Shown here one piece after another: positions 3,667 to 59,950 of a stretch of DNA of 64,000 bases. The translations under genes were made by a program, and so were the position numbers. The stretch is from Rhynchopus sp. YZ270_cl-10 (taxonomy: Eukaryota). Location: contig OZ037836.1 of NCBI GenBank assembly GCA_964035575.1, forward strand, positions 1,488,001 through 1,552,000, read 5' to 3'. Each line of letters starts with the position of its first letter. Positions within the stretch are counted from its first letter, which is position 1. The notes beneath the pieces were generated by a model that searched no databases, was not told where the DNA came from, and saw only the letters and a list, made by a program, of their open reading frames with translations.

Positions 3667-4617
3667 ATGATGTCTCTTCGTTCCATTGTGCGCCAGGCGA
3701 AGTTCGTGCTCTCTGCTGTGCAGGTGGGTGCCGTGCAGATGCGCAGTAAGGTGACCAAGGCAGCAAAGAAGCCTGTGGCGAAGAAGTCTGCGTCGAAGAA
3801 GGTGTCTGCCAAGAAGGTGAAGGCTGCTCTTAAGGCTGCCCTGAAGGCTCGCGCTGCCAAGAAGGCTGCACTGAAGGCTCGTGCTGCGAAGAAGGCACAG
3901 GTCAAGAAGGACAAGAAGGCTGCTTACAAGGTCATGAAAGCCGCCCTCAAGAAGATCCAGAAAAAGGCAAAGAAGGCTCGTGTTGACGAGGCAAAGCAGA
4001 TAAAAAAAACAGAGAAGGCTGCCCTGAAGGCTCGTGTTGCCGAGGCAAAGCAGGTCAAGAAAACAGAGAAGGCTGCCCTGAAGGCTCGTGTTGACGAGGT
4101 AAAGCAGGTTCAGAAGGCAAAGAAGGCTGCTCTCAGGGCTCGTGTTGCGAAGAGAAAGCAGGCTGTCAAGGCCAAGAAGGCTGCCCTCAAGGCTCGTCTG
4201 GCGAAGAAGAGACAGGCTGCCAAGGACAAGAAGGCTGCCCTCAAGGCTCGTGTCAACGAGGAGAAGGCCAAGAAGGCCAAGATCGCATCGAGCGGACCTA
4301 TCACCGCACGCACCCTGTTCTTCCAGAAGACGATGAAGGGAACGAAGCTGACCCTGAAGGATATGAACACGAAGTGGGCAGCACTCTCCGCCCAGCAGCG
4401 TGGAGTGCTCGAGGCTGAGGCAGCAAAGAACAAGGCCAAGAGGACCGACATCCGCCAGAGCCTGAAGAAGCCTGCTACCAAGTACGCGCTCTTCACGAAG
4501 AAGCACTTCCCCGCTGAGTACACGGCTGCCATGAAGTCTGGCCTTCCCCGCAAGGAGGCCTTCGCGACTGCGATACATGCTGTGTTGAAGAAGTACCGTT
4601 CCCAGCGAAGTGTCTGA
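3667..4617 (+). CDS. Lys/Ala-rich histone H1-like protein with C-terminal HMG-box-like domains and a presequence-like N-terminus (KAP-like), 316 aa
   Basis: MMSLRSIVRQAKFVLSAVQVGAVQMRS N-terminus without acidic residues; KKAALKAR repeats; GPITARTLFFQK...KWAALSAQQR and KKPATKYALFTK HMG-like motifs; strong AAG/GCT codon bias. Confidence 0.8.
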   Translation: MMSLRSIVRQAKFVLSAVQVGAVQMRSKVTKAAKKPVAKKSASKKVSAKKVKAALKAALKARAAKKAALKARAAKKAQVKKDKKAAYKVMKAALKKIQKKAKKARVDEAKQIKKTEKAALKARVAEAKQVKKTEKAALKARVDEVKQVQKAKKAALRARVAKRKQAVKAKKAALKARLAKKRQAAKDKKAALKARVNEEKAKKAKIASSGPITARTLFFQKTMKGTKLTLKDMNTKWAALSAQQRGVLEAEAAKNKAKRTDIRQSLKKPATKYALFTKKHFPAEYTAAMKSGLPRKEAFATAIHAVLKKYRSQRSV

Positions 4618-10398: not shown

Positions 10399-10910
10399 AA
10401 AGTTCCTGGCGAAGCCACGGTACGCAACATTTCTGAAAAATGTCGACATAAATTGGCACTGTCGTTGGTAATTATCGTCAGTTCCGTTAAATTTTACCTA
10501 CGTATTTTGCTAGAACGAAAGTTTCTGGCGAAGCCACGGTACGCAACATTTCTGAAAAATGTCGACATAAATTGGCACTGTCGTTGGTAATTATCGTCAG
10601 TTCCGTTAAATTTTACCTACGTATTTTGCTAGAACGAAAGTTTCTGGCGAAGCCACGGTACGCAACATTTCTGAAAAATGTCGACATAAATTGGCACTGT
10701 CGTTGGTAATTATCGTCAGTTCCGTTAAATTTTACCTACGTATTTTGCTAGAACGAAAGTTTCTGGCGAAGCCACGGTACGCAACATTTCTGAAAAATGT
10801 CGACATAAATTGGCACTGTCGTTGGTAATTATCGTCAGTTCCGTTAAATTTTACCTACGTATTTTGCTAGAACGAAAGTTTCTGGCGAAGCCACGGTGCG
10901 CAACATTTCA
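10399..10910. repeat. 119-bp tandem repeat, ~4.3 copies
   Basis: Unit AAAGTTTCTGGCGAAGCCACGGTACGC...GCTAGAACG repeats at a 119-bp period. Confidence 0.95.
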
Positions 10911-13039
10911 AAAAATTGCGCTTATATTTGCACATTTGTGCTGAACTATGTCATGGGAAAGGGTGGGTTGCAATCTTGCGCCGCAGGCGCACGGTACGCT
11001 ACTTTTTTCGTTGGCCATGCTGCATGCTTCCTTCTTCTTTCTCACTCCTCATTGGGTTCTACGAGCTCCGTCCGTAAAATGGTGGGGTCACAACATGCAG
11101 CAAAGTTCGCAGCTATGCAAACTGCCCCCACGTTTACTTTGCACTTTGCCCTCAGTGGCCAAGTGCTGACCATATTTTACACTAAACCTGAAAATGCCCT
11201 GTAAAAACTGACACATGCATTTTAGGTCAAAAATACTCATTTCTCAGCGCAAAGTGACCCCATCACAGCACGCACGGACTCCCGAGAATCGAGAAAAAAA
11301 TTTTCCCCCAATTTGTTGGGGGCCAAAAAAGAAAAATTTCCCCCCGACCCCCCGACTCCGACCCCCCAAAAAGTTTATACAGGGAAATAATTTTTCGCAA
11401 AAAACACCCCAAAAATAAAGTGTAATTTTTGTACTTCTTTTGTAGTTGTTTTGTGCTGTTTTTGTACTGGATTTAGCCACACCAAATAATACAAAAAATC
11501 ACAAAGATCCATACAAATCCACACAATGGATTTAATTGCATATGTGGCCTGGTCAGGGGTGTCGCTAATTTTGGGGAAATTTTTGAAAAATCTGAAATCG
11601 GGGTGCAATTTTTTTTTTTTTTACGTGGGGATTTTTTTTCCATTACCAGGGGGCGAAAAAACAGTGTTTTGTGGCATTTCCGAGCCAATCCCAGGCTGTG
11701 GTGGGGGATATACGGAAAAATGGACAAACTTTTAGTGACTTAAATTTTCACAAAATATGAACCCATACTCTTAAACATGGGTCATTTTCAGGTCTGAAAA
11801 CCCAAATTCAGATGAAATTGTGGTGTTTTTGACATTACTGAGAACAGTAGGTAGCGCCGCAGGCGCACGGTACCCAACTTTTGTCTTTTCTTTTTCCCTT
11901 TTCTCTGCGTTCTTTTGAATGTGCGAGCCGATTGCTCTCCACGGTGGGGTCACATGTGTGCGCTAAAATACGCTAAAGTACCCTTACACTGAAGTATGAG
12001 ATTCTCTGGTTTTAGCAAGGAAACCCTTGCAAGCATGTTCCCAGATCACGAAAAGAGGGGAGGCGTTTTTGGGCGTTTTTGTTGATTGCATCGTCCGATG
12101 CGGTGCAATTGCAGAAAGTGATGGGGTCATTTTGGAAAAATGGACGAGTTTTCGGTATTTAAGTTTTCACCATTTTTTTTATTCCTGTGCACTTTTCGAG
12201 ACTGCCGATTCTCGTAAACAAGGGTCATGTTCAAGTCCGAAAACACAGCTTCAGATGAAATTGTGGTGTTCTTGACTGAGAACGGTAGCGCCGCAGGCGC
12301 ACGGTACCCAACTTTTGTCTTTTTGTCTTTTCCTTTTTCTCTGCGTTCTTTTGATTGCGCGAGCCGATTGCTCTCCACGGTGGGGTCACATGTGTGCGCA
12401 AAAACACGCTATGGTACCTTTACTAAGGAAACCCTGGTTTGCAAAAAAAAGGGGTAAGGCAGGGTAAGGAAATCCCACCCAAAAAATAAATCTTCGCGGG
12501 GTGAGGGCGGCACCTGGTGATTTTCCCTGACCCCCAAAAACCTCGTTTTTGGAACGTTCTGACACAACCGAGTTCACGGTGGCCTCTCACTTAAAAAAAG
12601 AACAAGTTGTTAACACATTAAACCCACCCTGTATTAGGTGCAATTTTTTTTTTCCTACACAGATTTTACTAGGGGTGCAAATTTTTTTTTTGGTTTTGAA
12701 AAAGTCGGGACCCTGGACCCGAATTAGCGACACCCCTGGTTTTATATGATACGAGAAATTTTTTGATAAGTGTTGCATTTTGCCCCAAAGTGTGACGCGA
12801 GCGTGACGGTATTTTGAGGGGGGTTTTCACAAAAAATCGATTTTTTTTAGTCAGGAAAGTCTCTGTAGAGGTTTTCTGGCGGTTTATTGGGATATTTGGG
12901 TGATCCCCAGGGCGATTTGCGGCCAGGTACGCCCATTTTAGTGGATTTCTTCACCTAAATTTCAAAAAAATGGTTTTGGACACCAAATCCTTAAGGAATT
13001 CCTTCTACGTGGACCCCCCTAATCCCCCCCTCCCCACAG

Positions 13040-13330: not shown

Positions 13331-14491
13331 ATGATGTCTCTTCGTTCCATTGTGCTCCAGGCGAAGTTCGTGCTCTCTGCTGTGCAGCTGGGTGCCGTGC
13401 AGATGCGCAGCAAGGTGACCAAGGCAGCAAAGAAGCCTGTGGCGAAGAAGTCTGCGTCGAAGAAGGTGTCTGCCAAGAAGGTGAAGGCTGCTCTTAAGGC
13501 TGCCCTGAAGGCTCTCTCTGCCAAGAAGGCTGCGAAGAAGGCACAGGCTGTCAAGGTGAAGAAGGCTGCTCTTAAGGCTGCCCTGAAGGCTCGCGCTGCC
13601 AAGAAGGCTGCGAAGAAGGCACAGGTTGTCAAGGCCAAGAAGGCTGCCCTGAAGGCTCGTGCTGCGAAGAAGGCACAGGTCAAGAAGGACAAGAAGGCTG
13701 CTTACAAGGTCATGAAAGCCGCCCTCAAGAAGATCCAGAAAAAGGCAAAGAAGGCTCGTGTTGACGAGGCAAAGCAGATAAAAAAAACAGAGAAGGCTGC
13801 CCTGAAGGCTCGTGTTGCCGAGGCAAAGCAGATAAAAAAAACAGAGAAGGCTGCCCTGAAGGCTCGTGTTGCCGAGGCAAAGCAGATCAAAAAAACAGAG
13901 AAGGCTCGTGTTGCCGAGGCAAAGCAGGTCAAGAAAACAGAGAAGGCTGCCCTGAAGGCTCGTGTTGACGAGGTAAAGCAGGTTCAGAAGGCAAAGAAGG
14001 CTGCTCTCAGGGCTCGTGTTGCGAAGAGAAAGCAGGCTGTCAAGGCCAAGAAGGCTGCCCTCAAGGCTCGTCTGGCGAAGAAGAGACAGGCTGCCAAGGA
14101 CAAGAAGGCTGCCCTCAAGGCTCGTGTCAACGAGGAGAAGGCCAAGAAGGCCAAGATCGCATCGAGCGGACCTATCACCGCACGCACCCTGTTCTTCCAG
14201 AAGACGATGAAGGGAACGAAGCTGACCCTGAAGGATATGAACACGAAGTGGGCAGCACTCTCCGCCCAGCAGCGTGGAGTGCTCGAGGCTGAGGCAGCAA
14301 AGAACAAGGCCAAGAGGACCGACATCCGCCAGAGCCTGAAGAAGCCTGCTACCAAGTACGCGCTCTTCACGAAGAAGCACTTCCCCGCTGAGTACACGGC
14401 TGCCATGAAGTCTGGCCTTCCCCGCAAGGAGGCCTTCGCGACTGCGATACATGCTGTGTTGAAGAAGTACCGTTCCCAGCGAAGTGTCTGA
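13331..14491 (+). CDS. KAP-like H1/HMG protein, copy 2, 386 aa
   Basis: Near-identical to 3667-4617 with extra in-frame Lys/Ala repeat units (+70 aa). Confidence 0.8.
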   Translation: MMSLRSIVLQAKFVLSAVQLGAVQMRSKVTKAAKKPVAKKSASKKVSAKKVKAALKAALKALSAKKAAKKAQAVKVKKAALKAALKARAAKKAAKKAQVVKAKKAALKARAAKKAQVKKDKKAAYKVMKAALKKIQKKAKKARVDEAKQIKKTEKAALKARVAEAKQIKKTEKAALKARVAEAKQIKKTEKARVAEAKQVKKTEKAALKARVDEVKQVQKAKKAALRARVAKRKQAVKAKKAALKARLAKKRQAAKDKKAALKARVNEEKAKKAKIASSGPITARTLFFQKTMKGTKLTLKDMNTKWAALSAQQRGVLEAEAAKNKAKRTDIRQSLKKPATKYALFTKKHFPAEYTAAMKSGLPRKEAFATAIHAVLKKYRSQRSV

Positions 14492-15527: not shown

Positions 15528-17392
15528 GTCGGGGAAGACCTTTTCTGGGCGATGAAGACGTGGCTCGCTGCACTGCGTTGGCCTGATGGAGCGGTACGGA
15601 TGGAAATGGGACGATTTCCACTGCTGGACGACGCATACCGGGATGAGGGTGAGAATCCAGCAGTATGAGAGCGGCAAGTGGCTGCACGAGCTGCGGGTGG
15701 GCATTCGCGCGAAAGTATTCCGAGCGACGGCGGAACGCAGAACAGGGATGAAGGGGATCGAGAGCGGCGTGGACCGGCAGCTGACGAACGAGCTGTGGAG
15801 AGACGCTTCGACGGACAGGTACGTGGCAGGTACCATTCGGGGCACTTTGTCAGGCTCGACGGTGGTGGGTGTGCACTTGCAGGAATGGGGAAAAGACGTG
15901 TCGTCGCTGGGCAGGTACTGCGACATGGCGATTGAGACGAGGGTGCACACGTGGTGGTGGTGCCCGCGGTGGGACTCGCACCGGGGAGAAGATATCGACG
16001 AGCTCCGGATCACGCTCATGAACGCACCTCCATGCTTCATGAATCACGGCCTGGTGCCCGAGGTCTTCTTGCAGGAGTTAAGCGCGAAAGAGAAGGCGAA
16101 GCTGGTGAAGCGTGTGCAGGGGATGATGGCGGCAATCATCATTGCGCGCCATGCGTACGATCGGGAAATCGGGCGCCGCGACAAGAAGAACGCGCCGAAG
16201 CTGGGTGGGATGTCGATGTTTCCTTGGGGCTGGAAGCCGCCGCAGGAGGCAGAGCTGGAGACGTTCGACCCGCTTGAGCGTGTACTGTGGAAAAGTGGAC
16301 ATATCCACAGCGACAAATGGACGGAAGACCTTTTCTGGGCGATGAAGACGTGGCTCGCTGCACTGCGTTGGCCTGATGGCACAACGCCCCCCATCACGCA
16401 GATAGAGCTCATGTTGGATTTCGAAGTCTTCTCGGGGCTGGATGTGCCGGGGGTATCAGTGGGGAAAAGAGCTGAATTTTTCGGCAGTATGTTGCGACAG
16501 GCAGAGGTGATGGCGGGTGGTAGAACGGTGTGGAAAGGTGTTAGGTTGACTTCGGTGCGACATCTGGGGGAGCTGGGGGCCGGAACCCACGTGGGGTATT
16601 CTGTGAGACCTGTGCTGACGTATTCGGCAGAGGTTGAGCAGTACCTGCGTGACATGCGGCTGAAGGCGACCGAGAAGCAAGCAGCAACAGTGGCGCAGCA
16701 GAAGAAGAAGAAGAAGGGAACGGGATGGGGTGACTGCACGGTGACTCACTCTGCTGCCGACGAACGCTCCGTAAGGGGCGAACAATGGAAGCAGATGGCA
16801 GAGGCACAGGTGCAGGCAGAGACGAGACGGAAGGAGTCAGCGCTTGCCGCGGTCGCGGCAGCGCAGAGAATACGTGCGGGAGCGAGGAGGAGACAGACGC
16901 CGGCTGTCCGGGTAACGGCGAAAAGGAAGCAGGGGAACATGCAGGTGTGCGTCACACACAGTAGGTTGCGATGCGAGGACTGCACCCTCAACCGCAACAA
17001 CATCAACAACTGTTGTGCGATGCACCACTGCGATGCGAACATTTTGGAGGCATGCGATGAGGCAGTAGACTCGTGTGAACAGCACAGTATATCTGCGTGC
17101 GGGCAGTGTGCGGGGGCAGCGACACCGATGACGGCGAAGCAGTGCTGTGGCAAGCACCACAACTGCACAGGACACGACAGAGGAGCTTGCGATATTTGTG
17201 TGGCCAGTGAGAGGAAGAAGAAGAACCGTGACGGACGCCCGATGATTGCTTCGCCGCAATGCAAGAAGGGTCACCACGACGTGAATCAGACGCGTCTGGT
17301 GTTTCGATAACGATGGTGTACACGTGGTGCCATCCTCATAATTAGGCTGCTGGTCGGCTAATTGTGGGGGTGGGTCACGTTAACAAGTTTAA
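15528..17392 (+). mobile_element. 5'-truncated non-LTR retrotransposon (family A)
   Basis: 13-bp TSD CTCGTTGACAAGT (15515-15527 / 17393-17405); ORF with a degenerate post-RT zinc knuckle (ETRVHTWWWCPRW); short 3' UTR without poly-A. Confidence 0.85.
15586..17310 (+). CDS. C-terminal part of a LINE ORF (zinc knuckle, W-L-x-x-L-R-W/ELxxDFE block, three Cys/His repeats)
   Basis: Colinear motif similarity with 48764-50743; RT core absent (truncated). Confidence 0.75.
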   Translation: MERYGWKWDDFHCWTTHTGMRVRIQQYESGKWLHELRVGIRAKVFRATAERRTGMKGIESGVDRQLTNELWRDASTDRYVAGTIRGTLSGSTVVGVHLQEWGKDVSSLGRYCDMAIETRVHTWWWCPRWDSHRGEDIDELRITLMNAPPCFMNHGLVPEVFLQELSAKEKAKLVKRVQGMMAAIIIARHAYDREIGRRDKKNAPKLGGMSMFPWGWKPPQEAELETFDPLERVLWKSGHIHSDKWTEDLFWAMKTWLAALRWPDGTTPPITQIELMLDFEVFSGLDVPGVSVGKRAEFFGSMLRQAEVMAGGRTVWKGVRLTSVRHLGELGAGTHVGYSVRPVLTYSAEVEQYLRDMRLKATEKQAATVAQQKKKKKGTGWGDCTVTHSAADERSVRGEQWKQMAEAQVQAETRRKESALAAVAAAQRIRAGARRRQTPAVRVTAKRKQGNMQVCVTHSRLRCEDCTLNRNNINNCCAMHHCDANILEACDEAVDSCEQHSISACGQCAGAATPMTAKQCCGKHHNCTGHDRGACDICVASERKKKNRDGRPMIASPQCKKGHHDVNQTRLVFR

Positions 17393-18371: not shown

Positions 18372-19845
18372 TTATGTTACTCTGTGCTGCAAAAGAATCC
18401 CCACAAAAACCCATGTCTTATTCATTACAACGTACCTCCCCCCCCCCTTTTTTTCTGTAATCCATCACTCTGAACTCGTTGACACCACGTGGTCTTTCAC
18501 TGTCTTCTTGGTAGCTTTGCACGAAGAGGTGTGAGGTGTGATGACGGAGGCGAGTGGCTTCGTGTGATATGATGCAGGTTTCTTCTCCTCAGATGAGGAG
18601 TTCTGAGGACCACGGGGAGGGGAGGGTCGACAAGCGAAAACGTTTCATCTCCCGCCTTGTTGTCTGCTTAGCAGATGGCTTCACTGATGGATTCAATTTC
18701 TTCGGGGGCAGCCCTTTCCAGTGGATGACGGCGAGGGCCGTTTCCGTTTCCGTGAAGGGCGCATTGTTGCGACAGGCCTGTGTCTCTCAGGTGTCCAGAG
18801 TGTCGAGAGCACGACGACACACAGGTGTCGCTGGAACTGCAGCATTCGTTTGTGACGGAGGTGAATGGGAAAGAGTGAGAAGAGAAGCCGGAATCTGTGA
18901 ATAGGACAAAGAGTGTGCAAGAGTATGCCACGATGTGGAAGCGGTGCTTGGCCGAGCTGCCGCAGGTGAAGACTGAGCGTATGGTACCTTGCGCACCCTT
19001 CCACGACATAGTCGTGAAGTCGAGCATGCTTGTCGGAGGCATCCTGTGAGATGCCTCCACCCCTTCAAGGAGTGACTACTCCATGCAGATGAGGCAGATG
19101 ACGGTGAAGCTGGCAGGAAGGCATGGGCGACACTCCGTCCGAACGTTGATTGACTTAATGTGTCATCATGTCGGGGAGGAGGGAGGAGGAGATCAAGCGC
19201 AGTGTCCCCTCCATCAGCACGATTGGCCGAGGGGATATGCGTGTAGGAGAGGCACCTCTATTTGCGGTGACCGTTATTATGTCTGCTATTAGGGCGATGG
19301 GCCAGACCACGACGGGAGCCTTTTCTTTCCTCTTCACATAACACCCCCCCTCCCCTCCCCTCACCTCTCACCTCACACCCTCCCCACCTCAGGGAGACAC
19401 AAACACACATACTCTTTCCACCCCCCCCTCTCACACACTCTATCCCCTCCCCTCCCCTCTCACCTCACACCCTCCCCACCTCAGGGAGACACAAACACAC
19501 ATACTCTTTCCACCCCCCCCTCTCACACACTCTATCCCCTCCCCTCCCCTCTCACCTCACACCCTCCCCACCTCAGGGAGACACAAACACACATACTCTT
19601 TCCACCCCCCCCTCTCACACACTCTATCCCCTCCCCTCACCTCTCACCTCACACCCTCCCCACCTCAGGGAGACACAAACACACATACTCTTTCCACCCC
19701 CCCCTCTCACACACTCTATCCCCTCCCCTCACCTCTCACCTCACACCCTCCCCACCTCAGGGAGACACAAACACACATACTCTTTCCACCCCCCCCCCTC
19801 TCACACACTCTATCCCCTCCCCTCACCTCTCACCTCACACCCTCC

Positions 19846-19952
19846 CATACTGTAAACTTGTTTAAGTAGCTTTGCTACGCCAGGGGGGTCTCTAGGATAA
19901 AATATGTCGCGAATAAGAAAGTCTTTTCCCCCTCCCCCTTTTTCGCTATGGA

Positions 19953-19988
<36 letters not shown>

Positions 19989-20217
19989 GCGTACCATTTC
20001 TCTATTGCTACGTGCCCTTTTGTTGTTATTGCTTACCACTTGCTTCGGCAAGGTTGGTTGAGGACGTTACGGGGAAATCTCACCACCACCTTCATCAGTA
20101 TTTTGTGTTGTGTTTCCCCAGTCTCGCCCTCATGACCACATACCTCGCTGCCGTTTTTTCGGCGCTATTAACCAAAAAAGACCTTTCCCCCCATATTTTA
20201 TCCTAAAGAGACCCCCC
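19846..20217 (+). mobile_element. Solo A-B terminal repeat of the YR retrotransposon
   Basis: Matches 25340-25690 apart from homopolymer lengths; same insertion point in a satellite unit. Confidence 0.9.
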
Positions 20218-20756
20218 ACCTCAGGGAGACACAAACACACATACTCTTTCCACCCCCCCCTCTCACACACTCTATCCCCTCCCCTCCCCTCTCACCTCAC
20301 ACCCTCCCCACCTCAGGGAGACACAAACACACATACTCTTTCCACCCCCCCCTCTCACACACTCTATCCCCTCCCCTCACCTCTCACCTCACACCCTCCC
20401 CACCTCAGGGAGACACAAACACACATACTCTTTCCACCCCCCCCTCTCACACACTCTATCCCCTCCCCTCACCTCTCACCTCACACCCTCCATACTGTAA
20501 ACTTGTTTAAGTAGCTTTGCTACGCCAGGGGGGTCTCTAGGATAAAATATGTCGCGAATAAGAAAGTCTTTTCCCCCTCCCCCTTTTTCGCTATGGATAT
20601 ATTTTTTTTTTGCGCGTACCATTTCTCTATTGCTACGTGCCCTTTTGTTGTTATTGCTTACCACTTGCTTCGGCAAGGTTGGTTGAGGACGTTACGGGGA
20701 AATCTCACCACCACCTTCATCAGTATTTTGTGTTGTGTTTCCCCAGTCTCGCCCTC

Positions 20757-21875
20757 ATGACCACTATGGATGAAGCGCTGGAGTCGCTCAGGGCCAAGAG
20801 TGGGTCACGGTCGTTCCGGATGTCGCGAGATGTTGCGAACATCGTTGCGGATTCGTCGGACGCCGTGAAGTCTGCACTGGGAAACGCCTGGGAGTCCGTC
20901 ACGGGCGCGCTGTGCGTCCGGACGTTTGAGGATTTCCGGGGGGAGAAGGAAGATTTCGGGGAGGAACACGTGCGCGCTGCGTTGGCACGCGTCACGGGAA
21001 CTGTGCCCTCGGACTGGACAGATGTTCCCTGTCTGCGTCTTCTTTTGCTCCTTGGAGTCCTCCGGAAGAGGCTGGGAGACGAGCTTTTTGGAGCTGTCGT
21101 GAGGGAGGGCGACGCCGAGCTGCCTCACTCCCCCGAAGTGCCTACCCCTCCCGCCTCCGTGAACACCGTTGCTGAAGCGTTTGCGGCGGAGAGCGTGAGA
21201 GACGCAGAGAGGGACGAGGAGCGCGAACGCCTCACCGTGCACTTCACCCCTCGTTCCAACACACAACACCCTGCCCCCCCCGCCCCCCCCCTCCCTACAC
21301 ATGAGGACAAGTCAGAGGATGAGAAGAAGGATGCGAGCATCGGGGATAGCGAGAGCGAAGGCGAGGCTTCCGCCCCTACCAAGAAGCTCACAGTGGACAA
21401 TGTACTGCTCGTCCCGGACAAATGGCACGAGCTCTCGGAGGTACAGCTGCTTACCCTCCGCAACCGCCTCACCGAGATGTACCTGCCAAGGGAGCAAGGG
21501 GACGCCAGGGATGCCATCAAGGCGAGCATGGATATCATGTTCAGCATCTTGGAAGGTTCCCCACCGAACGACATCCTGTCCGGTCTCCTCAACTCTGTGA
21601 TGCACCTAGGCATCCGGGCGAAGGAAGGATGGGAGGCGGCCCAGGCCTTCTCCAAATCCATGACCGCCTCAAACGGGGTCTCCTCGGACAGGAAAGCCGC
21701 CCTGAAGGCAGCAGCAGGGGTTGGACAGAAGAGAAAGGCTCCGACATCTCATGCACAGGGAGGAAGGGCACCTAAGCGTCCGAGAACAGAAAACAAGCCG
21801 CGGCACTCCAGAGGAGGTGCCAACCAACGCCCGAACTGGTTTTTTCGGAACCATTCCTACGCCCCTCGCAGGTAG
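20757..21875 (+). CDS. Gag-like ORF1 of the YR retrotransposon
   Basis: First ORF after A1 (MTTMDEALES...), helical body with a basic C-terminus; assigned by position. Confidence 0.7.
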   Translation: MTTMDEALESLRAKSGSRSFRMSRDVANIVADSSDAVKSALGNAWESVTGALCVRTFEDFRGEKEDFGEEHVRAALARVTGTVPSDWTDVPCLRLLLLLGVLRKRLGDELFGAVVREGDAELPHSPEVPTPPASVNTVAEAFAAESVRDAERDEERERLTVHFTPRSNTQHPAPPAPPLPTHEDKSEDEKKDASIGDSESEGEASAPTKKLTVDNVLLVPDKWHELSEVQLLTLRNRLTEMYLPREQGDARDAIKASMDIMFSILEGSPPNDILSGLLNSVMHLGIRAKEGWEAAQAFSKSMTASNGVSSDRKAALKAAAGVGQKRKAPTSHAQGGRAPKRPRTENKPRHSRGGANQRPNWFFRNHSYAPRR

Positions 21876-21903
21876 TAACTACGGCACCACTGACCAGAGA
21901 GAG

Positions 21904-24900
21904 ATGGAAGTGGGAGAGCGAACCAGCGGCTTCAGTGCACCTGGGACAAAAAACATCGGCTGCTTCGTTGCGCCTGAGAAAAAACAAAATCAAAATCAAA
22001 AACAAGAACAAAAACAACAACAACAACAACAACAACAACAAAGACAAAAACAATTTGGCAGCTTCGCGCCTGATAAAAGACAAAGACAAAAAGGTCAACA
22101 ATTCGGCAGCTTTGCGCCCAAACAACAAGGCAGCTTTGCGCCCAAAAGAGAACAACAAGAAGGCAGCTTTGCGCCAAAACAAGAACAACAAGGCAGCTTT
22201 GCGCCCAGACAGCCTACACGTTGGCCTGCACCAAGCGGAAGAAGAGCCGGCACCACTACGATGGGGCGTATGCCCTCCTCCAAATCTGTCTCCACCACCT
22301 TCCCCAACGACAAGATTCGCATCGCGGCTACCACGAGCGAAAGGAGGTCCCCGCAATTTGGTCGACCACAACTTTTTCTCCATCAGGGATGGAAAGGCCC
22401 TGGGGAGGGCGATGCACGAGAGGATTCCGTGGGACGAACTGCACCTGCACGCGACTGCCCCAACGACCCAAGGAGAGGTGCAACGAGTGTGGAGCGATTT
22501 CCTGAGGGGCTGCGCAACTGCTCCTCATCTGAGCAAGGAAGTGCATCTTCTGCAGTTCGCGCACCGCAGGCTACGTACGGCGGCCCCCCGCTCCGTAGTA
22601 GGCTACATGTGCAAGATCCTGCGAGAGTGCAAGCGGCGAGGGATCAGAGGGGTCGCAACGGTCCGTGTATTGGGGGCAAAGAAGGCGCTCAGAAGACTAT
22701 CTGCGGCGGTACGTCCGAGACAGGCGCCACCTCTTCCTCCCTCCGATGTCATCACCGGCGTGAACAAGCTTGTCAAGGCCGGAGACCAACATGCCGCCGC
22801 TTTAGCTGCGATGTCCTACATGACGAGGTCCCGCGTCCCAGACCTACGTTTTCTGAACAAATCGGATTGGCGCGAGATTCATTGTGCAGGGGAGTCGCCG
22901 ATCAAGGTAGGAGCAGAACTATTTGCGAAGGAGAAGGGCGTCCTGGTGGCTCGCCCCCCCATCTATCTTCCTCCGGGTCCTCTAACAGCAATCGCGGTGT
23001 CTTTTTGGAGAACTGTGCAACACCACAACACCGTGATGGGGGGCAACACACGAGAGTTCGAGTCGCTGATGGAGCGCATTCGCAAGGTCATGCCAAAGGG
23101 GACGTGGATGCACTCATTCAAGAGAGGAGCGGCGCAAGCGATTCAACTGCAGGGGGCATCAAACGAAAGAATGCGTCTACTCCTGCGACACAGCAACGTG
23201 GGGCAGACAGCGGCATACCTGAACGCGACGAACGTATCTGCACGGATGAGGGAGACGGAGGAGCTGAAGACCCTGCAGTTGCTGCACTGATCAACGGGGC
23301 GAAATATCCCCTACCAGTCTGCGACGAGGGGATAGAGGTGCCTGACCCCGACTACTTCCCCGTGGGGCTCTGCAAGCCCCCCCCCATCATAAAGAAAAGC
23401 CTTGATTCTTTCCCCACGGGCCTAATCGTGTTGGAGGCCGTGCGCAGGATGGCTGAGGAGGTAGGGAAGGACTCTGATTTCCTGCAGTGGTGTACTTCCG
23501 GACGTAAGATTGCAGATGCTTTATCTGGACCGATCCCGCTCCCTGGCCCGAAGTCAAAAATCCCAAATTCTTTTGTGTCGGAGTGCGTGAAGTCGAAGGT
23601 ATTGATTCCTCTTGCTCGGACTGACCGCAAGAAGGGCGCAGTTTGCGTTTTTGACGTCCCGAAGAGTGACCCGCAACTGCGGAGGCTAGTGGTGGATGGA
23701 CGTCCTGTTAACAAAAGGATCGCCAAGCCACAGCCTTTCTCCCTGGTCAACCCCCACAAGCTTGCAACAATGCTTAAGGTGTCAAACGCACGCTTTGCTC
23801 AACAGACCGACCTAAAGGGGTATTTCCACCAGTTCCCCCTCTCACCCGAGGTGTCCAAATATTTTTGTGTGCAGGCTGGGGGACGTTGGTTTAGATGGGC
23901 GCGTCTACCCATGGGTTTTGCGTACGCGCCGTACATCGCGCAGAACACTTCTGAGATTTTTCTTGGCCCCATTCTGAACAAATGGGGTGTTGTGTACCTT
24001 GACGACATTTTTGTGTGGGGTGCATATCCTGCTGAGGCGGCGGCTAAGACGGCTTTTGTGCGTGACCGTCTGCAGCGTGCGGGTGCGGAGGTAAACGTGA
24101 AGAAGTCCATGGCTAAACCGGCTGAAGTCGTTGACTTCATCGGCATAGTGTGGAACCTTCCGTTGCAATCTTTTTCGTTACCAGAGGAGTGGAGGTTAAA
24201 GTCATCACGCATCATTCATGACACCCTGAAGCTGGAGACCTGTTCCCTACGAAAATGGTGGAAGGTATGCGGACTTGTGTTCAGAGCCGCGTACGTCCTG
24301 GATTTCAAGCTATGTTTTCTTTGCCACACTTTGCAGTTCGTGCGCAGTAAAGCACAACTCGTCTCCCGCAAGAAGCTGTCATGGGATGACGACGTGGCCA
24401 TGCACGTTGCGACGAAGGAGGAGTTGGCAGCTTTCGCTGTGGCGAACATTCAGACTTGTGTGACGGTTCCCTTCCCCTCTCCGCCCCCGATACATTTCTC
24501 CATCGCAGTATGGACCGACGCGTCCACGACAGGCTGGGGCTGGGTGTCGAAGCTGCAGAACTCTTTTTCTGGCGTCGAAAGGCACGGACGGTGGGAATCG
24601 ACGCACACCTCTGGAGAGATGTTTGTGTTGGAGCTGCGTGCGGCTGAGAAGGGCATGGCAGCAGCTTTGGAGGGCGGCCACACAGCTATCGTTCTTTTCG
24701 TGGACAACGAGGCGGTGAAGTATGTCCTCAGGAGAGGCCACTCCCGCACCCGCCTGGGCAACTCCATTCTGAGGAGGATGAGCACGCGACTCTCCGCAGC
24801 GAAGGCACACCTTCACATCAGGTGGATTAAGACCGACGAGATGCCCGCCGACTGGGGGTCCCGACAGAAGCTGGCAGGTCAGGGCGTGAGTTTGAGTCCC

Positions 24901-24966
24901 AACAGGTTTGGTCACGTCGTGGAGGAGGCGTCGGGGATGAGAGTGTCTGACGATGTCCTGCAGTAG
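21904..24966 (+). CDS. Reverse transcriptase-RNase H (frame open from 21721; true start uncertain)
   Basis: TDLKGYFHQF, RLPMGFAYAP, VYLDDIF, DFIGIVW; DIRS-type RNase H WTDAS...LELRA...FVDNEAV...MPADWGSR. Confidence 0.93.
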   Translation: MEVGERTSGFSAPGTKNIGCFVAPEKKQNQNQKQEQKQQQQQQQQQRQKQFGSFAPDKRQRQKGQQFGSFAPKQQGSFAPKREQQEGSFAPKQEQQGSFAPRQPTRWPAPSGRRAGTTTMGRMPSSKSVSTTFPNDKIRIAATTSERRSPQFGRPQLFLHQGWKGPGEGDAREDSVGRTAPARDCPNDPRRGATSVERFPEGLRNCSSSEQGSASSAVRAPQATYGGPPLRSRLHVQDPARVQAARDQRGRNGPCIGGKEGAQKTICGGTSETGATSSSLRCHHRREQACQGRRPTCRRFSCDVLHDEVPRPRPTFSEQIGLARDSLCRGVADQGRSRTICEGEGRPGGSPPHLSSSGSSNSNRGVFLENCATPQHRDGGQHTRVRVADGAHSQGHAKGDVDALIQERSGASDSTAGGIKRKNASTPATQQRGADSGIPERDERICTDEGDGGAEDPAVAALINGAKYPLPVCDEGIEVPDPDYFPVGLCKPPPIIKKSLDSFPTGLIVLEAVRRMAEEVGKDSDFLQWCTSGRKIADALSGPIPLPGPKSKIPNSFVSECVKSKVLIPLARTDRKKGAVCVFDVPKSDPQLRRLVVDGRPVNKRIAKPQPFSLVNPHKLATMLKVSNARFAQQTDLKGYFHQFPLSPEVSKYFCVQAGGRWFRWARLPMGFAYAPYIAQNTSEIFLGPILNKWGVVYLDDIFVWGAYPAEAAAKTAFVRDRLQRAGAEVNVKKSMAKPAEVVDFIGIVWNLPLQSFSLPEEWRLKSSRIIHDTLKLETCSLRKWWKVCGLVFRAAYVLDFKLCFLCHTLQFVRSKAQLVSRKKLSWDDDVAMHVATKEELAAFAVANIQTCVTVPFPSPPPIHFSIAVWTDASTTGWGWVSKLQNSFSGVERHGRWESTHTSGEMFVLELRAAEKGMAAALEGGHTAIVLFVDNEAVKYVLRRGHSRTRLGNSILRRMSTRLSAAKAHLHIRWIKTDEMPADWGSRQKLAGQGVSLSPNRFGHVVEEASGMRVSDDVLQ
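21935..23290 (+). CDS. Tyrosine recombinase (first in-frame ATG at 22412)
   Basis: Catalytic motifs SRVPDL (R), HSFKRG (HxxR), LLRH, TAAYL (Y). Confidence 0.9.
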   Translation: MHLGQKTSAASLRLRKNKIKIKNKNKNNNNNNNNNKDKNNLAASRLIKDKDKKVNNSAALRPNNKAALRPKENNKKAALRQNKNNKAALRPDSLHVGLHQAEEEPAPLRWGVCPPPNLSPPPSPTTRFASRLPRAKGGPRNLVDHNFFSIRDGKALGRAMHERIPWDELHLHATAPTTQGEVQRVWSDFLRGCATAPHLSKEVHLLQFAHRRLRTAAPRSVVGYMCKILRECKRRGIRGVATVRVLGAKKALRRLSAAVRPRQAPPLPPSDVITGVNKLVKAGDQHAAALAAMSYMTRSRVPDLRFLNKSDWREIHCAGESPIKVGAELFAKEKGVLVARPPIYLPPGPLTAIAVSFWRTVQHHNTVMGGNTREFESLMERIRKVMPKGTWMHSFKRGAAQAIQLQGASNERMRLLLRHSNVGQTAAYLNATNVSARMRETEELKTLQLLH

Positions 24967-26564
24967 ATGTTTTTTCTATTTTCTAGGGTGTGGCTTTGTT
25001 TTTTCTGGTCGTCGGAGTGCGAATGGTCGAGTCAAGGTTGTTGTTTTTGATGTTTCGTGCGTGTGTTTCGCGTGGGGCTGTTTTTTACCTACGTTACGTT
25101 TTTTCGTGCCATATTTTTTGTGTTCGGAGTTGTTTTCTGTCATGAGACAGTATTGGAGATTATGCTTCTCACGTGGAGAACGCTACCTCAGTGTGGCGTC
25201 AAAGTTGGGCACAGGTCAGGGCACGAGCGACGGGTGTTTCCCCAGTCTCGCCCTCATGACCACATACCTCGCTGCCGTTTTTTCGGCGCTATTAACCAAA
25301 AAAGACCTTTCCCCCCATATTTTATCCTAAAGAGACCCCCATACTGTAAACTTGTTTAAGTAGCTTTGCTACGCCAGGGGGGTCTCTAGGATAAAATATG
25401 TCGCGAATAAGAAAGTCTTTTCCCCCTCCCCCTTTTTCGCTATGGATATATTTTTTTTGCGCGTACCATTTCTCTATTGCTACGTGCCCTTTTGTTGTTA
25501 TTGCTTACCACTTGCTTCGGCAAGGTTGGTTGAGGACGTTACGGGGAAATCTCACCACCACCTTCATCAGTATTTTGTGTTGTGTTTCCCCAGTCTCGCC
25601 CTCATGACCACATACCTCGCTGCCGTTTTTTCGGCGCTATTAACCAAAAAAGACCTTTCCCCCCATATTTTATCCTAAAGAGACCCCCCCACCTCAGGGA
25701 GACACAAACACACATACTCTTTCCACCCCCCCCTCTCACACACTCTATCCCCTCCCCTCACCTCTCACCTCACACCCTCCCCACCTCAGGGAGACACAAA
25801 CACACATACTCTTTCCACCCCCCCCTCTCACACACTCTATCCCCTCCCCTCCCCTCTCACCTCACACCCTCCCCACCTCAGGGAGACACAAACACACATA
25901 CTCTTTCCACCCCCCCCTCTCACACACTCTATCCCCTCCCCTCACCTCTCACCTCACACCCTCCCCACCTCAGGGAGACACAAACACACATACTCTTTCC
26001 ACCCCCCCCTCTCACACACTCTATTCCCTCCCCTCCCCTCTCACCTCACACCCTCCCCACCTCAGGGAGACACAAACACACATACTCTTTCCACCCCCCC
26101 CTCTCACACACTCTATCCCCTCCCCTCCCCTCTCACCTCACACCCTCCCCACCTCAGGGAGACACAAACACACATACTCTTTCCACCCCCCCCTCTCACA
26201 CACTCTATCCCCTCCCCTCCCCTCTCACCTCACACCCTCCCCACCTCAGGGAGACACAAACACACATACTCTTTCCACCCCCCCCCTCTCACACACTCTA
26301 TCCCCTCCCCTCACCTCTCACCTCACACCCTCCCCACCTCAGGGAGACACAAACACACATACTCTTTCCACCCCCCCCTCTCACACACTCTATTCCCTCC
26401 CCTCCCCTCTCACCTCACACCCTCCCCACCTCAGGGAGACACAAACACACATACTCTTTCCACCCCCCCCTCTCACACACTCTATCCCCTCCCCTCCCCT
26501 CTCACCTCACACCCTCCCCACCTCAGGGAGACACAAACACACATACTCTTTCCACCCCCCCCCC

Positions 26565-27653
26565 CAGTGATGCAGGAATCCAGGGTCCCAAACAAAAAAA
26601 CCCATAAAAACCCAAAAAAACCCAAAAAAACCTTAAAAAATCCCACCGCACTATATTTTGCTTTTGGGGCGTGGAGTGTGATTTTTTTTGCTCAAAACAT
26701 CGCAAATATGAATTTTCGGAGCGATCTGAAAAAAATGCGGGGTCGGACATTTTTTTTGGTGGAGTTTAAGCCACCTAAAATTGACTTCTAAGTCAGACGT
26801 TCTATACGGTTTCTGAACAATTTTAGTGCCGTGAGTTTACGTGTATAAACCTTCTGTTACGTGTGCACCTACAGCTACAACAGGCGTTTTCACCTGGAGT
26901 TTCACCTCTTTTGGTGGGTTTTTTGAGTCCATACCCAGGTATGTGGGGTGGGAAACGCGATTCCGGTGTAAGAACCATGGGTGGTTCCACTGCAGTACCA
27001 CGTAACCCACGTTTAAATCCCAAAAAACCCCGGTGACACCATCTTCTCGGTGAGCAATGAGTGTTACCCGCGCGTGCTCCTTTCGTCACGCAAACCAAAA
27101 AGCGGTGCAATGTTGTGAATTTTTGAAGATTTTGTGTGTTTTCCTGATTTTCGTACATTTTGTTGCGTTTTGGGTTATGATATTGTAGATTTTTGTGTAG
27201 ATTTCGTGGGTTTTTTCGTTTTTTTTTGTTGTAAATTTGGGCGACCGCCTGGCTGGTGCCTGTATGAAGTGGTTTTTCAGGTCAAAAATGGCCTGAAAAA
27301 GTGGTGTTTTCGGGGTCTGGTACCTGTGTGTGACCATACTACAGGTGGTATGATGAGTGATCTGACCATATTCTCCAGGTATAACAAACACCTAAAAAAC
27401 CAATTGGCGAAGGAATTTTACACTTTTGACCACCACACATTACATGTTTACCAAGGCATTTTTTCCATGCACTTGTGTGTGCTGGGAAGCATACCGCCAG
27501 TGTTAAAAATTCACGAATACCCTACCAAAAACCAGAAAGTCAAAAAACCCATAAAAACCCGAGAAAACTGGTTTTGAAAAAACCCGAAAAAACCCAAAAA
27601 AACCCATAAAAACCCGCATAAAAACCCATCGAAAAACCCACCTTGCATCACTG
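26565..27653. mobile_element. Non-autonomous hAT-like element within the satellite
   Basis: TIR CAGTGATGCA.../...TGCATCACTG, flanked by C8 on both sides; AAAAACCC subterminal repeats. Confidence 0.8.
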
Positions 27654-28168
27654 CCCCCCCCTCTCACACACTCTATCCCCTCCCCTCACCTCTCACCTCA
27701 CACCCTCCCCACCTCAGGGAGACACAAACACACATACTCTTTCCACCCCCCCCCCCCCTCTCACACACTCTATCCCCTCCCCTCCCCTCTCACCTCACAC
27801 CCTCCCCACCTCAGGGAGACACAAACACACATACTCTTTCCACCCCCCCCCTCTCACACACTCTATCCCCTCCCCTCCCCTCTCACCTCACACCCTCCCC
27901 ACCTCAGGGAGACACAAACACACATACTCTTTCCACCCCCCCCTCTCACACACTCTATCCCCTCCCCTCCCCTCTCACCTCACACCCTCCCCACCTCAGG
28001 GAGACACAAACACACATACTCTTTCCACCCCCCCCCTCTCACACACTCTATCCCCTCCCCTCACCTCTCACCTCACACCCTCCCCACCTCAGGGAGACAC
28101 AAACACACATACTCTTTCCACCCCCCCCCTCTCACACACTCTATCCCCTACCCCCCACCCATTACACA

Positions 28169-30544
28169 ATGCCGACTGTTGAGATACCTCATAACGCATA
28201 TGCAGGTGAGCCCTCGTCGCCACATAGCCAGAGCCCGGGGCTGTCTGAAGCCTCACCCCGTACAGAGAACAATGCCTCGCCGACGTCAAGCGCAAACTAC
28301 CTCTCGCCGAAGTCGTGTGCGATCATTGAAGGGTCAGCGGAGTGTGTCATCTGTTTAGAAGCCTTGTCGGACCCTGAGAGCGCGCCGTTATGCGTATTGA
28401 CGAAGTCGTCCGACCGTGTGTGCAAGCACTTTTTTCATATGCACTGCGCGCAACGCATCAAGTCTGTGGATGGAAAAGGATATGGCGAAAAGGTCCAGAC
28501 ATTCTACACAGACAGCGTCGTCAAAAGCTGCCCAAACTGCAGAGCCTGCTTCGACGGCGTCCGCGAAGTGCCCGACCCAAAACTGAAGCCTGCCGAATGG
28601 CTTTCCCTCATGGACTGCACAGGCACCGGACACCTCGGCAAAGAGGACCTGATCGACTGCCTGCTTGCAACCCTCCCCTTTGAGGTCAACACGCTTCTCG
28701 AGATGGTCGACCAAAACTGGCCAATCTGGGATGCCGACGGACTCGGGTACATCACAAAAGACGTTGCCCAGGCGATGATGGACGTCGTGAAGAAGAACTT
28801 CCCTCCCTTCCTCCCGGAGGACCCCACCGGCTGGTTCGACCACTGGGACGTCGACGGGACCGGCGCGCTTTCGAAACAACAGGTTGCATGCGCCATCGCG
28901 TCTACTCTAGCCTCAGAGGTAAACGAAGCGATGGACCTCCTCGACGGGCTATGGTGTCTCTTTGACAAGGCTGACCCCGATGTCATCACCAAGGCAAAGT
29001 TTTTGGAGCCCCGAGGCCTCTCCGACACACTCTGCGCATCGCTCGCTGAGGACCCTAGGTTCAAAACCCGCGTCAAGTCAGCGCTATCGCCTAAGTCGCG
29101 TAACGCACACTCGTTTGACCCTTGCGCTGCACCTCATGCGGATTTGGAGGAAGGCATGCGTGTTCGTGTCATGACCGTCATTGGCACGCCACGATACAAA
29201 TGGGGCCGGACGCGCCCGGGAGATATCGGGACCATCAAGCGCATCGACCGTGAGAAGAACACCTGCAGGATCGACTTCCCTAAGCAGCGCTCCTGGCGGG
29301 GCTACCTCCCGGAGCTGGAGAAGGTGCCGGACTATCTGGTATCGTACCGTCCTTGGCAGGCCGGCGACGAAGTTCAGGTCCTTTCCGACTTACAACGCGC
29401 CAAGAAACAACAGGATGACCGTTCCAACTGGGTGTCCTCAATGGACGCAACCTGCGGCAAGGTAGGAAAAATCTGTCTCGTCCTTCCGGCAGAGCGCAAA
29501 GTAAAAGTACGTCTTGAAAGGGGCACCTTTGTGTACGTCATGGAAAACGTTGTCCGTCCTGGGATGGTTGACCCACCAAAGCTCCGCGTCAGCATGAAGG
29601 TGCGTGTCAAGGCAGAGGTCGCTACTCCAAGGTTTCAATGGGGTAACGTCTCGCCGGGTGATGTCGGAACTGTTACTGCTTTGCACGACCCGAGTTTGAC
29701 CTGTCAAGTGTCGTTCCCTAGGCACCATAACTGGAAGGGGCATCAGTCTGAACTCGAAGTCGTCGCAGATGACACAACGGAGGCGCCAAACAGCACGACC
29801 CCAGGGAGCCCGGAGAGCAGCCCGCCTGCGTCTCCTTCTGCATCACCGAGGATTCGGGTTGGTGCGTACATTCGAGTGAAACCGAGCATCAAAACACCAA
29901 AATTCGCATGGGGCCGAGTGAGCACAGGAAACATCGGTGTGCTAACCGCAGTTGAGCGTACCAAAGAGCTGGTGACAGTCGACTTTCCTTCGCAAAGGAA
30001 TTGGATTGGTTATCTTCACGAGATGGAGACAGTTCGTGTGCGTCATCCAACGCAACAGTGGGGTTGCCCTGCATGCACCTTCTTAAACGAGCCCGATGCT
30101 GTAGCGTGCGATATGTGCGATGGCCCTCCGCCACTGAACGAAACCGAAGCTGCCGCGCAGGGAGTACAGCACAACCTTTCGAGTTCGCAGATCCTGCATG
30201 ACGCAGCGGCAAGCAATGCGGTAGTGTCAGATGCTTCGGGATCCGGCCCGTCGACGCTGTCGCCAAGCAGCATCTTCCACCTGGCAGAGAGGGGCGGGAA
30301 TGCGAATGTGAACGGCACGCCAGGGGGTGTGGTGCAGGCGTCGTCATCGTCGTCATCATCGTCGTCGTCATCGGCTTCGCTGCCTGCTCCCATAGCGGTG
30401 TCCTCACCGTCAAACGGAACGGTGTCCTCACGGCGTGTGAGGTTGCCCCCGCCCACAAGGGAGGGAGGAGGAGGAGGTGGGGGTGCAAGTGCTGACCCCC
30501 AAGGTACTGTATCAAATGCATCACCAACAGCAGAGGGTGCATGA
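28169..30544 (+). CDS. Putative E3 ubiquitin ligase: RING + EF-hand-like motifs + HERC2/KEG-like and Mind-bomb-like SH3 repeats + RanBP2/NZF zinc finger
   Basis: CVIC...CKHFFHMHC...CPNC; WDADGLGYI and WDVDGTGALS loops; three (V/I)RV...TP(R/K)(Y/F)xWG...G(D/N)(I/V)G...FP...WxG...E(L/M)E repeats; WGCPACTFLN...CDMC. Confidence 0.85.
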   Translation: MPTVEIPHNAYAGEPSSPHSQSPGLSEASPRTENNASPTSSANYLSPKSCAIIEGSAECVICLEALSDPESAPLCVLTKSSDRVCKHFFHMHCAQRIKSVDGKGYGEKVQTFYTDSVVKSCPNCRACFDGVREVPDPKLKPAEWLSLMDCTGTGHLGKEDLIDCLLATLPFEVNTLLEMVDQNWPIWDADGLGYITKDVAQAMMDVVKKNFPPFLPEDPTGWFDHWDVDGTGALSKQQVACAIASTLASEVNEAMDLLDGLWCLFDKADPDVITKAKFLEPRGLSDTLCASLAEDPRFKTRVKSALSPKSRNAHSFDPCAAPHADLEEGMRVRVMTVIGTPRYKWGRTRPGDIGTIKRIDREKNTCRIDFPKQRSWRGYLPELEKVPDYLVSYRPWQAGDEVQVLSDLQRAKKQQDDRSNWVSSMDATCGKVGKICLVLPAERKVKVRLERGTFVYVMENVVRPGMVDPPKLRVSMKVRVKAEVATPRFQWGNVSPGDVGTVTALHDPSLTCQVSFPRHHNWKGHQSELEVVADDTTEAPNSTTPGSPESSPPASPSASPRIRVGAYIRVKPSIKTPKFAWGRVSTGNIGVLTAVERTKELVTVDFPSQRNWIGYLHEMETVRVRHPTQQWGCPACTFLNEPDAVACDMCDGPPPLNETEAAAQGVQHNLSSSQILHDAAASNAVVSDASGSGPSTLSPSSIFHLAERGGNANVNGTPGGVVQASSSSSSSSSSSASLPAPIAVSSPSNGTVSSRRVRLPPPTREGGGGGGGASADPQGTVSNASPTAEGA

Positions 30545-58619: not shown

Positions 58620-59950
58620 CAGGCCTTTTGCTAACTTTGGGATTTTCCCCCTGAATGGCATGATGGTCAAAAAAAAATAATTTCCTGGAAAAAAAAGTAC
58701 ATTCCGAGCTTTCCCGCCTGGTGAAAGCGGTCGTCGCGCGCTTCGCGCGCGCCTCCCTGCCAGCCACAGGGTGGAGAGGCGAAGGGTCAGCTTTGCGAGA
58801 TATAAACAAAAAACGGAATATAATCCTTTATTAACGGTCCTTGGTCTTGCGCCTTACGTACACTAACCGTACAAAATCAATACGTCTTCCAGAAGCAGGG
58901 GCTGTTGCAACGGTTGGGTTGCTTTGAAATAAGAATGGTCAATTTTTTGCAGCTTGGGTCAAGTTTCATTTCTGGCTGCAAAATGCAAGGGAATCCCCTT
59001 AGACATTGTAAAATGGCACCGTAGGCAGGAAGAAAATAGCGTACAGCGAGCGAAGCGAGCAGAAAAAAATTTTTAGGTACACCTCCGCGAGCGCAGCGAG
59101 CAGAAAAATTGTAAGGTGCCATCGTGCCATCATGCCATCATGCCATCATGCCATCATGCCATCGTGCCATCATGCCATCATGCCATCATGCCATCATGCC
59201 ATCATGCCATCATGCCATCATGCCATCATGCCATCATGCCATCATGCCATCATGCCATCATGCCATCATGCCATCATGCCATCATGCCATCATGCCATCA
59301 TGCCATCATGCCATCATGCCATCATGCCATCATGCCATCATGCCATCATGCCATCATGCCATCATGCCATCATGCCATCATGCCATCATGCCATCATGCC
59401 ATCATGCCATCATGCCATCATGCCATCATGCCATCATGCCATCATGCCATCATGCCATCATGCCATCATGCCATCATGCCATCATGCCATCATGCCATCA
59501 TGCCATCATGCCATCATGCCATCATGCCATCATGCCATCATGCCATCATGCCATCATGCCATCATGCCATCATGCCATCATGCCATCATGCCATCATGCC
59601 ATCATGCCATCATGCCATCATGCCATCATGCCATCATGCCATCATGCCATCATGCCATCATGCCATCATGCCATCATGCCATCATGCCATCATGCCATCA
59701 TGCCATCATGCCATCATGCCATCATGCCATCATGCCATCATGCCATCATGCCATCATGCCATCATGCCATCATGCCATCATGCCATCATGCCATCATGCC
59801 ATCATGCCATCTGGGGGGGAAATCCCCAGGTGATGGATAGCGAAAGCCCTGCCCCACCACCCCCCGTGGCATGATGGTGGCATGATGGAAAAAAAAATAA
59901 AAAACGCCCAAAAACGTGGCACGATGGCATGATGGTTAGCAAAAGGCCTG
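58620..59950. mobile_element. CAGG-ended TIR element with 9-bp TSD ATAAGAAAC
   Basis: 16-bp TIR CAGGCCTTTTGCTAAC; TGGCATGATGG subterminal motifs. Confidence 0.85.
59117..59811. repeat. (TGCCATCA)n microsatellite, ~87 copies
   Basis: Near-perfect 8-bp tandem array. Confidence 0.97.

Follow-up and report, generated by a model that had tools for sequence, protein, structure and literature searches.

Among the retrotransposons that use a tyrosine recombinase (YR), excerpts of PMC6681497 describe split repeats in the VIPER/TATE elements, the short element SIRE as equivalent to A2+B2 of VIPER, and TATE as occupying a fixed position of a hexamer repeat. VIPER-like elements are defined by the order Gag-like, YR and reverse transcriptase/RNase H (RT/RH) with overlapping YR and RT frames, and VIPER insertions lack a target duplication (PMC12278014, in part). 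For TATE, a TT duplication was reported in a 2007 review (sections of PMC2696322). Solo AB repeats of the Ngaro elements of Cafeteria have been ascribed to recombination (PMC8547959, in part). As of 2020, the choice of target and the entry into it by YR retrotransposons had received no experimental test (excerpt of PMC7192593). The D. papillatum genome paper noted TATE-like ORFs, and none of the terms VIPER, Ngaro and YR was found in the passages and seven supplements consulted (PMC10161547). An open-access literature search, with subscription papers (e.g. Poulter and Butler 2015) and Repbase outside its scope, returned no description of the element presented here, of its satellite target, or of a junction hairpin in split-repeat elements.

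The window, that is, the whole 64-kb stretch of DNA analysed, contains a full element of 5,197 bp (20492-25688) composed of A1, ORF1, a tyrosine recombinase, RT/RNase H and B1-A2-B2, together with a solo A-B copy (Table 1). We are reasonably confident that this is an intact, young YR retrotransposon of VIPER/TATE layout accompanied by a solo copy, that the two likely reflect separate recombination events in the same C4 run, and that the target is likely a C-rich motif. The original prediction of a 5.2-kb element and a solo A-B copy of about 370 bp agrees with the measured lengths, both pieces lying in the C4 run, and its layout of A1...B1A2B2 repeats with the order gag-YR-RT/RH stands as well, though gag is assigned by position only. 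As anticipated, the three ORFs are all open and the repeats are near-identical: the A copies (solo, A1 and A2) differ only in a T run of 30, 10 and 8 nucleotides, respectively, and the three 107-bp B copies show no differences. The expected overlap of about 30 bp between A and B corresponds to a 30-bp block present four times (20110, 20735, 25234 and 25582), with the ORF1 ATG at 20757 inside it. The CAG of this block has a pyrimidine score of 15 of 20 and falls among the top 14 of 347 AG sites, others being comparable; judged by its sequence context, the CAG at 20746 is a possible candidate trans-splice acceptor.

Table 1. Positions of the element, the solo copy and the surrounding array in the window.
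Feature	Position	Strand	Remarks
Local tandem array, 92-bp C-rich unit	19351..28154	+	23 copies of unit marker
Solo A-B copy, 370 bp, T30 run	19847..20216	+	3 target Cs on left, 6 Cs on right
A1 repeat, 273 bp	20492..20764	+	2 target Cs on left
30-bp block common to A end and B start	20735..20764	+	Pyrimidine-rich stretch to CAG (20746), ORF1 ATG
ORF1, 372 aa	20757..21875	+	Gag-like by position only
ORF3, 1086 aa stop to stop, overlaps ORF2	21706..24966	+	RT (YLDD) and RNase H-like C-terminal part
ORF2, tyrosine recombinase, 504 aa stop to stop	21776..23290	+	First ATG 22412; R, K, H-x-x-K, H, Y motifs
B1 repeat, 107 bp, ends in donor C5 run	25234..25340	+	
Inverted repeat bracketing B1/A2 junction	25316..25400	.	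Stem of ~25 bp, 2-nt bulge, two small hairpins on top
A2 repeat, 271 bp	25341..25611	+	
B2 repeat, 107 bp	25582..25688	+	Followed by 2 target Cs (7 Cs in all to 25690)

The ORF1 product has no Pfam match, and its Atlas matches all score below 0.9, with no recognisable family; the Gag of VIPER/TATE ORF1 is also defined mostly by position (PMC6681497, in part). For ORF2, Pfam did not detect a recombinase domain. Its structural model (pLDDT 70.5) has Cre as the best fold match (E 9.8e-4, TM about 0.5), followed by Tn1549 Int, XerA/H and lambda Int, and in the Atlas it matches Phage_integrase clusters at 0.98. In the alignment, relatives share the catalytic R, K, H, H and Y, while the H-x-x-R position is occupied by K. 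A lysine at this second Arg position is also found in several relatives and in the C. fasciculata VIPER (translated by eye from the part of the PMC6681497 supplement consulted). On the predicted structure, ORF2 is a tyrosine recombinase with a Cre-like fold in which the catalytic residues are present. Its conserved N-terminal YR motif starts at residue 200, ahead of the first Met at residue 213 (window 21776-22412), suggesting that translation of ORF2 may depend on frameshifting, on a start codon other than ATG or on splicing. The overlap region of ORF2 is a low-complexity, N/Q-rich repeat, and the N-termini of the sister families are repetitive too. As a candidate for a clean -1 slippery site joining ORF1 to ORF2, the T6 run near 21840 was rejected, as by eye the frames do not fit. 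ORF3 matches RVT_1 in Pfam (E 3.5e-14), and the D/E/D motifs of its RNase H-like part are conserved in an alignment of relatives.

Close protein relatives of the element are few, with 4 YR matches, 12 RT matches, 34 RT matches by profile and 91 YR matches among cluster representatives. Ten of the YR representatives were checked, and the two with organism names come from Lacrimia lanifica (E 1e-53) and Eupelagonema oceanica, both diplonemids. The sole RT match with a protist name belongs to Papus ankaliazontas, and no named VIPER/TATE protein is among the protein matches. From these names, the host is probably a diplonemid. The RT belongs to a cluster of 16 near-identical members, of which the 15 listed share 97-100% identity with the window protein. 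These members lie on contigs of 14 distinct lengths, a number that may include haplotypes or separate assemblies. The recent origin foreseen for the element is upheld by this family together with the intact ORFs and near-identical repeats.

In a quick tree (34/34 rows), the family has a support of 97 and is joined, also with a support of 97, by the RT of the kinetoplastid Papus and two unnamed long branches. It lies apart from gypsy and from loci bearing inverted terminal repeats (ITRs), in a tree that carries a long-branch warning and includes no VIPER, TATE or Ngaro reference; VIPER-like membership thus rests on layout and motifs. No loci of close relatives were found in viral_contigs or genome_contigs, and the 22 loci from metagenome_contigs (21-26% identity) include none with a recognisable YR of the element's family. 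Terminal inverted repeats occur in metagenome loci L001, L009, L013, L016, L017 and L018, several of which also have a complementary stretch inside, as DIRS1-type elements typically do. At least four sister families (the P0007, P0009, P0010 and P0047 clusters), with 36-47% RT identity and 7-10 members each, occur on long ENA contigs, some of which equal contigs of the element's family in length. These families suggest that active YR elements have radiated within the genome of the element.

Both A-B pieces interrupt the 92-bp unit at the same site, the run CT-CCCC-ACCTCAGGG. To the left and right of the insertion, the solo copy has 3 and 6 Cs (3/6) and the full copy 2 and 7 (2/7); C5 is found where B1 joins A2 inside the element. 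At both sites the sums agree (3+6 = 2+7 = 9) and equal the target C4 plus the donor C5, indicating that no base was gained or lost at insertion, and a target-site duplication is absent from both. The predicted match between the C run of the B1/A2 junction and that of the target is seen in this C5 and in the C4 of empty units. As the partitions differ, the two pieces point to separate insertions with crossovers one base apart. The solo and the full copy had been placed at the same position, which holds for the C4 run, while the exact position is offset by one base. It is likely, then, that these are two separate insertions without target duplication.

The two pieces are only three units apart, as could result if a single insertion had been duplicated by unequal crossover and one of the copies had then collapsed, with the C differences arising from homopolymer slippage or assembly error. 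C runs of the unit do vary, the C8 run being C8 in 16 of 22 units and different in the other 6. However, this origin needs a gain of one in a run of 2 and a loss of one in a run of 7 that cancel exactly, and the C4 run is invariant in all 21 empty units. We regard it as very improbable; the original prediction had named it as evidence that would speak against its reading, and the differing partitions make it unlikely. The partitions could also be two compensating homopolymer errors. For two separate insertions (n=2), two hits in one run are expected at about 3/92 by chance if insertion is uniform, and at about 1/6 to 1/3 under a motif model. Since each unit has six C runs of at least 3 and three CCCTCC sites, the coincidence is modest evidence of specificity.

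The 92-bp array is broken by three insertions and terminates just upstream of the ATG at 28169, and its unit has no match elsewhere in the 64-kb window, i.e. outside 19351-28154. The array looks like a local amplification of DNA upstream of a gene. Within the unit, the cut site is flanked by a 5-bp inverted repeat with a 7-nt spacer. Flanks were surveyed in public contigs from 4 of the 10 runs containing the element (X1, X2, X6 and X7), the survey covering part of the loose ends, with 48 others outside it. No RNA run is listed as containing the element. Among those listed, the A start has at least three kinds of left flank other than the 92-bp unit. A CA-rich repeat adjoins it in X1 and X2, a unique flank in X2 still ends in CCCTCC, and in X1 and X7 a 22-nt CA-rich spacer separates a B end from an A start. 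The X1 contig with the CA-rich repeat matches the window A apart from one inserted T and the T-run length. Most alternative flanks adjoin this +T variant of A, possibly a sister subfamily that has a target of its own, and the exact (no +T) subfamily might be narrower in its target choice. Satellite depth at 20436 is 756 in X7 (body about 1,700, A above 20,000) and 0 in X1, X2 and X6, these depth sums not being copy numbers and the filter possibly dropping satellite contigs. No B-to-satellite joint is among the ends listed in the public contigs of the four runs, and only two insertion sites are readable with both flanks.

From these data, the likely target is a short C-rich motif within C/A-rich intergenic DNA, rather than the 92-bp unit as such; in the element's subfamily, CCCTCC precedes the cut. 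Under strict site specificity, the 92-bp unit would serve the recombinase as att site, in the manner of the telomeric hexamers of TATE. Both window copies lie in the same C run, the target cut has the inverted repeat and spacer described above, TATE provides a precedent, and the flanks of the exact subfamily elsewhere are only partly visible. Strict specificity is nonetheless improbable, given the three other flanks of the A end, the restriction of the array to one place in the window, the satellite depths of 0 in three runs and well below the body in X7, and the family's spread over contigs of 14 distinct lengths. For the same reasons (flanks, contigs and single array), the dedicated satellite att site of the original prediction is not borne out, and copies in unrelated targets, which it had held to be incompatible with its reading, are indicated by the A ends adjoining at least three other flanks. 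What remains of the proposed site-specific integrase-retroelement is a YR element that integrates conservatively via a C run, without the satellite-specific site.

Several further observations concern the array and the rest of the window. An ORF of 791 aa begins at the ATG at 28169, and the nearest upstream AGs (28092 and 28096) lie inside the final repeat unit, behind a pyrimidine tract (window 28086-28169), so the array may represent amplified copies of a trans-splice acceptor and the 5' UTR. Both YR insertions lie 7-8 nt upstream of the corresponding AG in their units. The C8 run of one unit holds a 1,089-bp non-coding element (26565-27653) that is unrelated to the YR element and has terminal inverted repeats of at least 10 bp (CAGTG...CACTG). 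It is flanked by 10 Cs on the left and 8 on the right, compatible with an 8-bp target duplication that would presumably be hAT-like, and has short internal matches at 54739-54846 and 62253-62302. By eye, an open 341-aa ORF (44948-45973) looks like a Tc1/mariner transposase, and ORFs at 15586-17310, 48767-50743 and 55373-56653, the last with an RNase H-like region, resemble the C-terminal portions of proteins from non-LTR retrotransposons. Two ORFs at 3667-4617 and 13331-14491 are paralogous and histone-like, rich in lysine and alanine and internally repetitive, and near-perfect tandem arrays lie at 483-798 (8 bp), 2455-2692 (7 bp), 10399-10916 (119 bp) and 59117-59811 (8 bp).

Outside the window, solo-like copies are likely abundant. 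The depth of the A end at 20505 is 1,372 against 74-77 for the body in X2 (about 18-fold) and 20,650 against about 1,700 in X7 (about 12-fold). In the shallow runs, A against body is 11 to 4 (X1) and 7 to 3 (X6), or 2.3-2.8-fold, near the 2-fold expected from full elements alone. A variant A-B join from 20711 to 25234 reaches a depth of 1,730 in X7. The A-end excess in the deep runs and the variant A-B joins suggest that solos form a large family.

As to the origin of the window solo, A1xA2 collapse and the integration of a 348-bp B1xB2 circle yield the same product. We lean towards collapse of a full copy by A1xA2 recombination, the plausible origin named in the original prediction, while its arrival as a 348-bp A-B minicircle is possible. 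More generally, solos might be mobile, a reading entertained here only tentatively: the redundancy of B1 and B2 (B1xB2), or a short RNA that begins at the 30-bp block, would give an A-B circle of 348 bp whose B/A junction is intact and which the recombinase would integrate in trans, producing a SIRE-like family. Such mobility is consistent with A ends far above bodies in two deep runs (the +T variant alone reaches 965 against a body of 75 in X2), with the B-spacer-A tandems and diverged A-B variants, and with the separate C partition (3/6) of the window solo; SIRE mobility is left open in the portion of PMC6681497 consulted. However, a solo-LTR-like collapse likewise gives a large excess of solos, the window solo is the same as A1, A2 and B apart from its T run, and no circle was observed.

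The inverted repeat that brackets the B1/A2 junction was absent from the original prediction, and the crossover C run ends its left arm. Folded in silico as single-stranded DNA, this stretch, which was picked because of its repeat, reaches -24.4 and -26.7 kcal/mol with a z of -7.5 on both strands, and 0 of 200 shuffles are as good; folded as RNA, its z is -6. Among 191 windows spanning the element, the junction scores best (z -9.3, the next -4.8), and no fold of this type is found at the two integrated ends. The inverted-repeat arms of the element are 31-nt long (81%), with a spacer of 36 nt between the junction arms. Duplex sites of the Cre type have spacers of 6-8 bp, for which 36 nt is long, suggesting that the fold is itself the substrate or pairs the ends during circle formation. 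In X1, a diverged B, known from a single contig of low depth with a partial echo in X7, carries 12 listed substitutions within its middle 45 nt; its two terminal 30-nt parts hold no more than 3, on the assumption that the 3 unlisted ones belong to them (p 0.0035). One B-like end in X7 retains only roughly the final 10 nt of the arm, and in X2 and X7 an A variant diverges from the arm at 20546, both of which speak against a general stem. One C. fasciculata VIPER, inspected by eye, shows no long stem where its B1 meets A2. The junction inverted repeat may be a recombinase site or an aid to circularisation.

Following the standard model, the RNA of the element would be reverse-transcribed, and the B1-A2 join would serve as the template that rebuilds both ends as a circle with a new B/A junction. 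The recombinase would then cross the C5 run of this junction into the C run of the target, at a point behind its second or third C and without any change in the number of bases. The inverted repeat that surrounds the junction may hold the two ends together or mark the recombinase site. A bolder and rather doubtful extension is that the substrate of the recombinase is the B/A junction folded as a single strand. In this reading, a 25-bp stem with a Y-shaped cap would form solely from joined ends, and the enzyme would cut at the C run atop the stem and fuse it to C runs of the genome with a latitude of one base. A-B minicircles of 348 bp that carry this 85-nt site would enable solos to spread on their own, and sister subfamilies would turn to other C/A-rich repeats as targets. 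Such a mechanism would be akin to integron attC or CTX-phage integration, and, if true, the folded junction would give a eukaryotic YR retroelement an att site that is both minimal and testable. With an intact copy, exact donor and target junctions, insertions one base apart and a compactly folded junction, the locus lends itself to a first recombination assay.

Ngaro elements have RT/RH ahead of the YR ORF, an order not found in the window element. In the sections of PMC8547959 consulted, the Ngaro of Cafeteria burkhardae shares with the window element split direct repeats, scattered solo AB copies and type-specific target preferences; its ORF2 is RT/RH, whereas the YR frame here (21776-23290) precedes the RT domain. 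For DIRS-1 of Dictyostelium, excerpts of PMC7192593 describe a short circle-junction sequence thought to define the integration site, self-complementary termini and a single-stranded cDNA, and the junction fold of the window element is, by analogy, like a miniature of these inverted termini. Unlike DIRS-1, with its long inverted repeats and internal complementary region, the window element has 25-bp offset arms and direct split repeats, and its RT lies apart from the loci of ITR pattern.

TATE of Leishmania braziliensis has the same layout and inserts at a fixed position of a tandem repeat unit (PMC2696322, PMC6681497, both in part). TATE targets telomeric GGGTTA, whereas the window element enters the C run of a local 92-bp unit, not telomeric hexamer repeats, and has other flanks as well. 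VIPER, with SIRE, of Trypanosoma cruzi and Crithidia, in the VIPER-like group, has A1...B1A2B2 repeats close in size to those of the window element (Ribeiro et al., 2019, PMC6681497, in part), and its short A+B form parallels the window solo. The window element also shows the VIPER order of Gag-like (here by position), YR and RT/RH with overlapping YR and RT frames, and the lack of a target duplication (excerpt of PMC12278014). By eye, the C. fasciculata VIPER copies share the YR motif H-S-x-K-R-G and have similar RT/RH motifs, though VIPER has WIDN in place of YLDD, and the parts of PMC6681497 consulted do not mention the 30-bp A/B overlap or the junction inverted repeat. The window element would extend full-length VIPER-like elements beyond kinetoplastids, probably to a diplonemid. 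Split repeats, solo A-B copies and insertion at an exact position of tandem repeats are already published, and none of the headline features lacks a precedent. What stays of interest is the exact arithmetic of the junctions together with the fold at the B/A join, through which the step of integration becomes testable.
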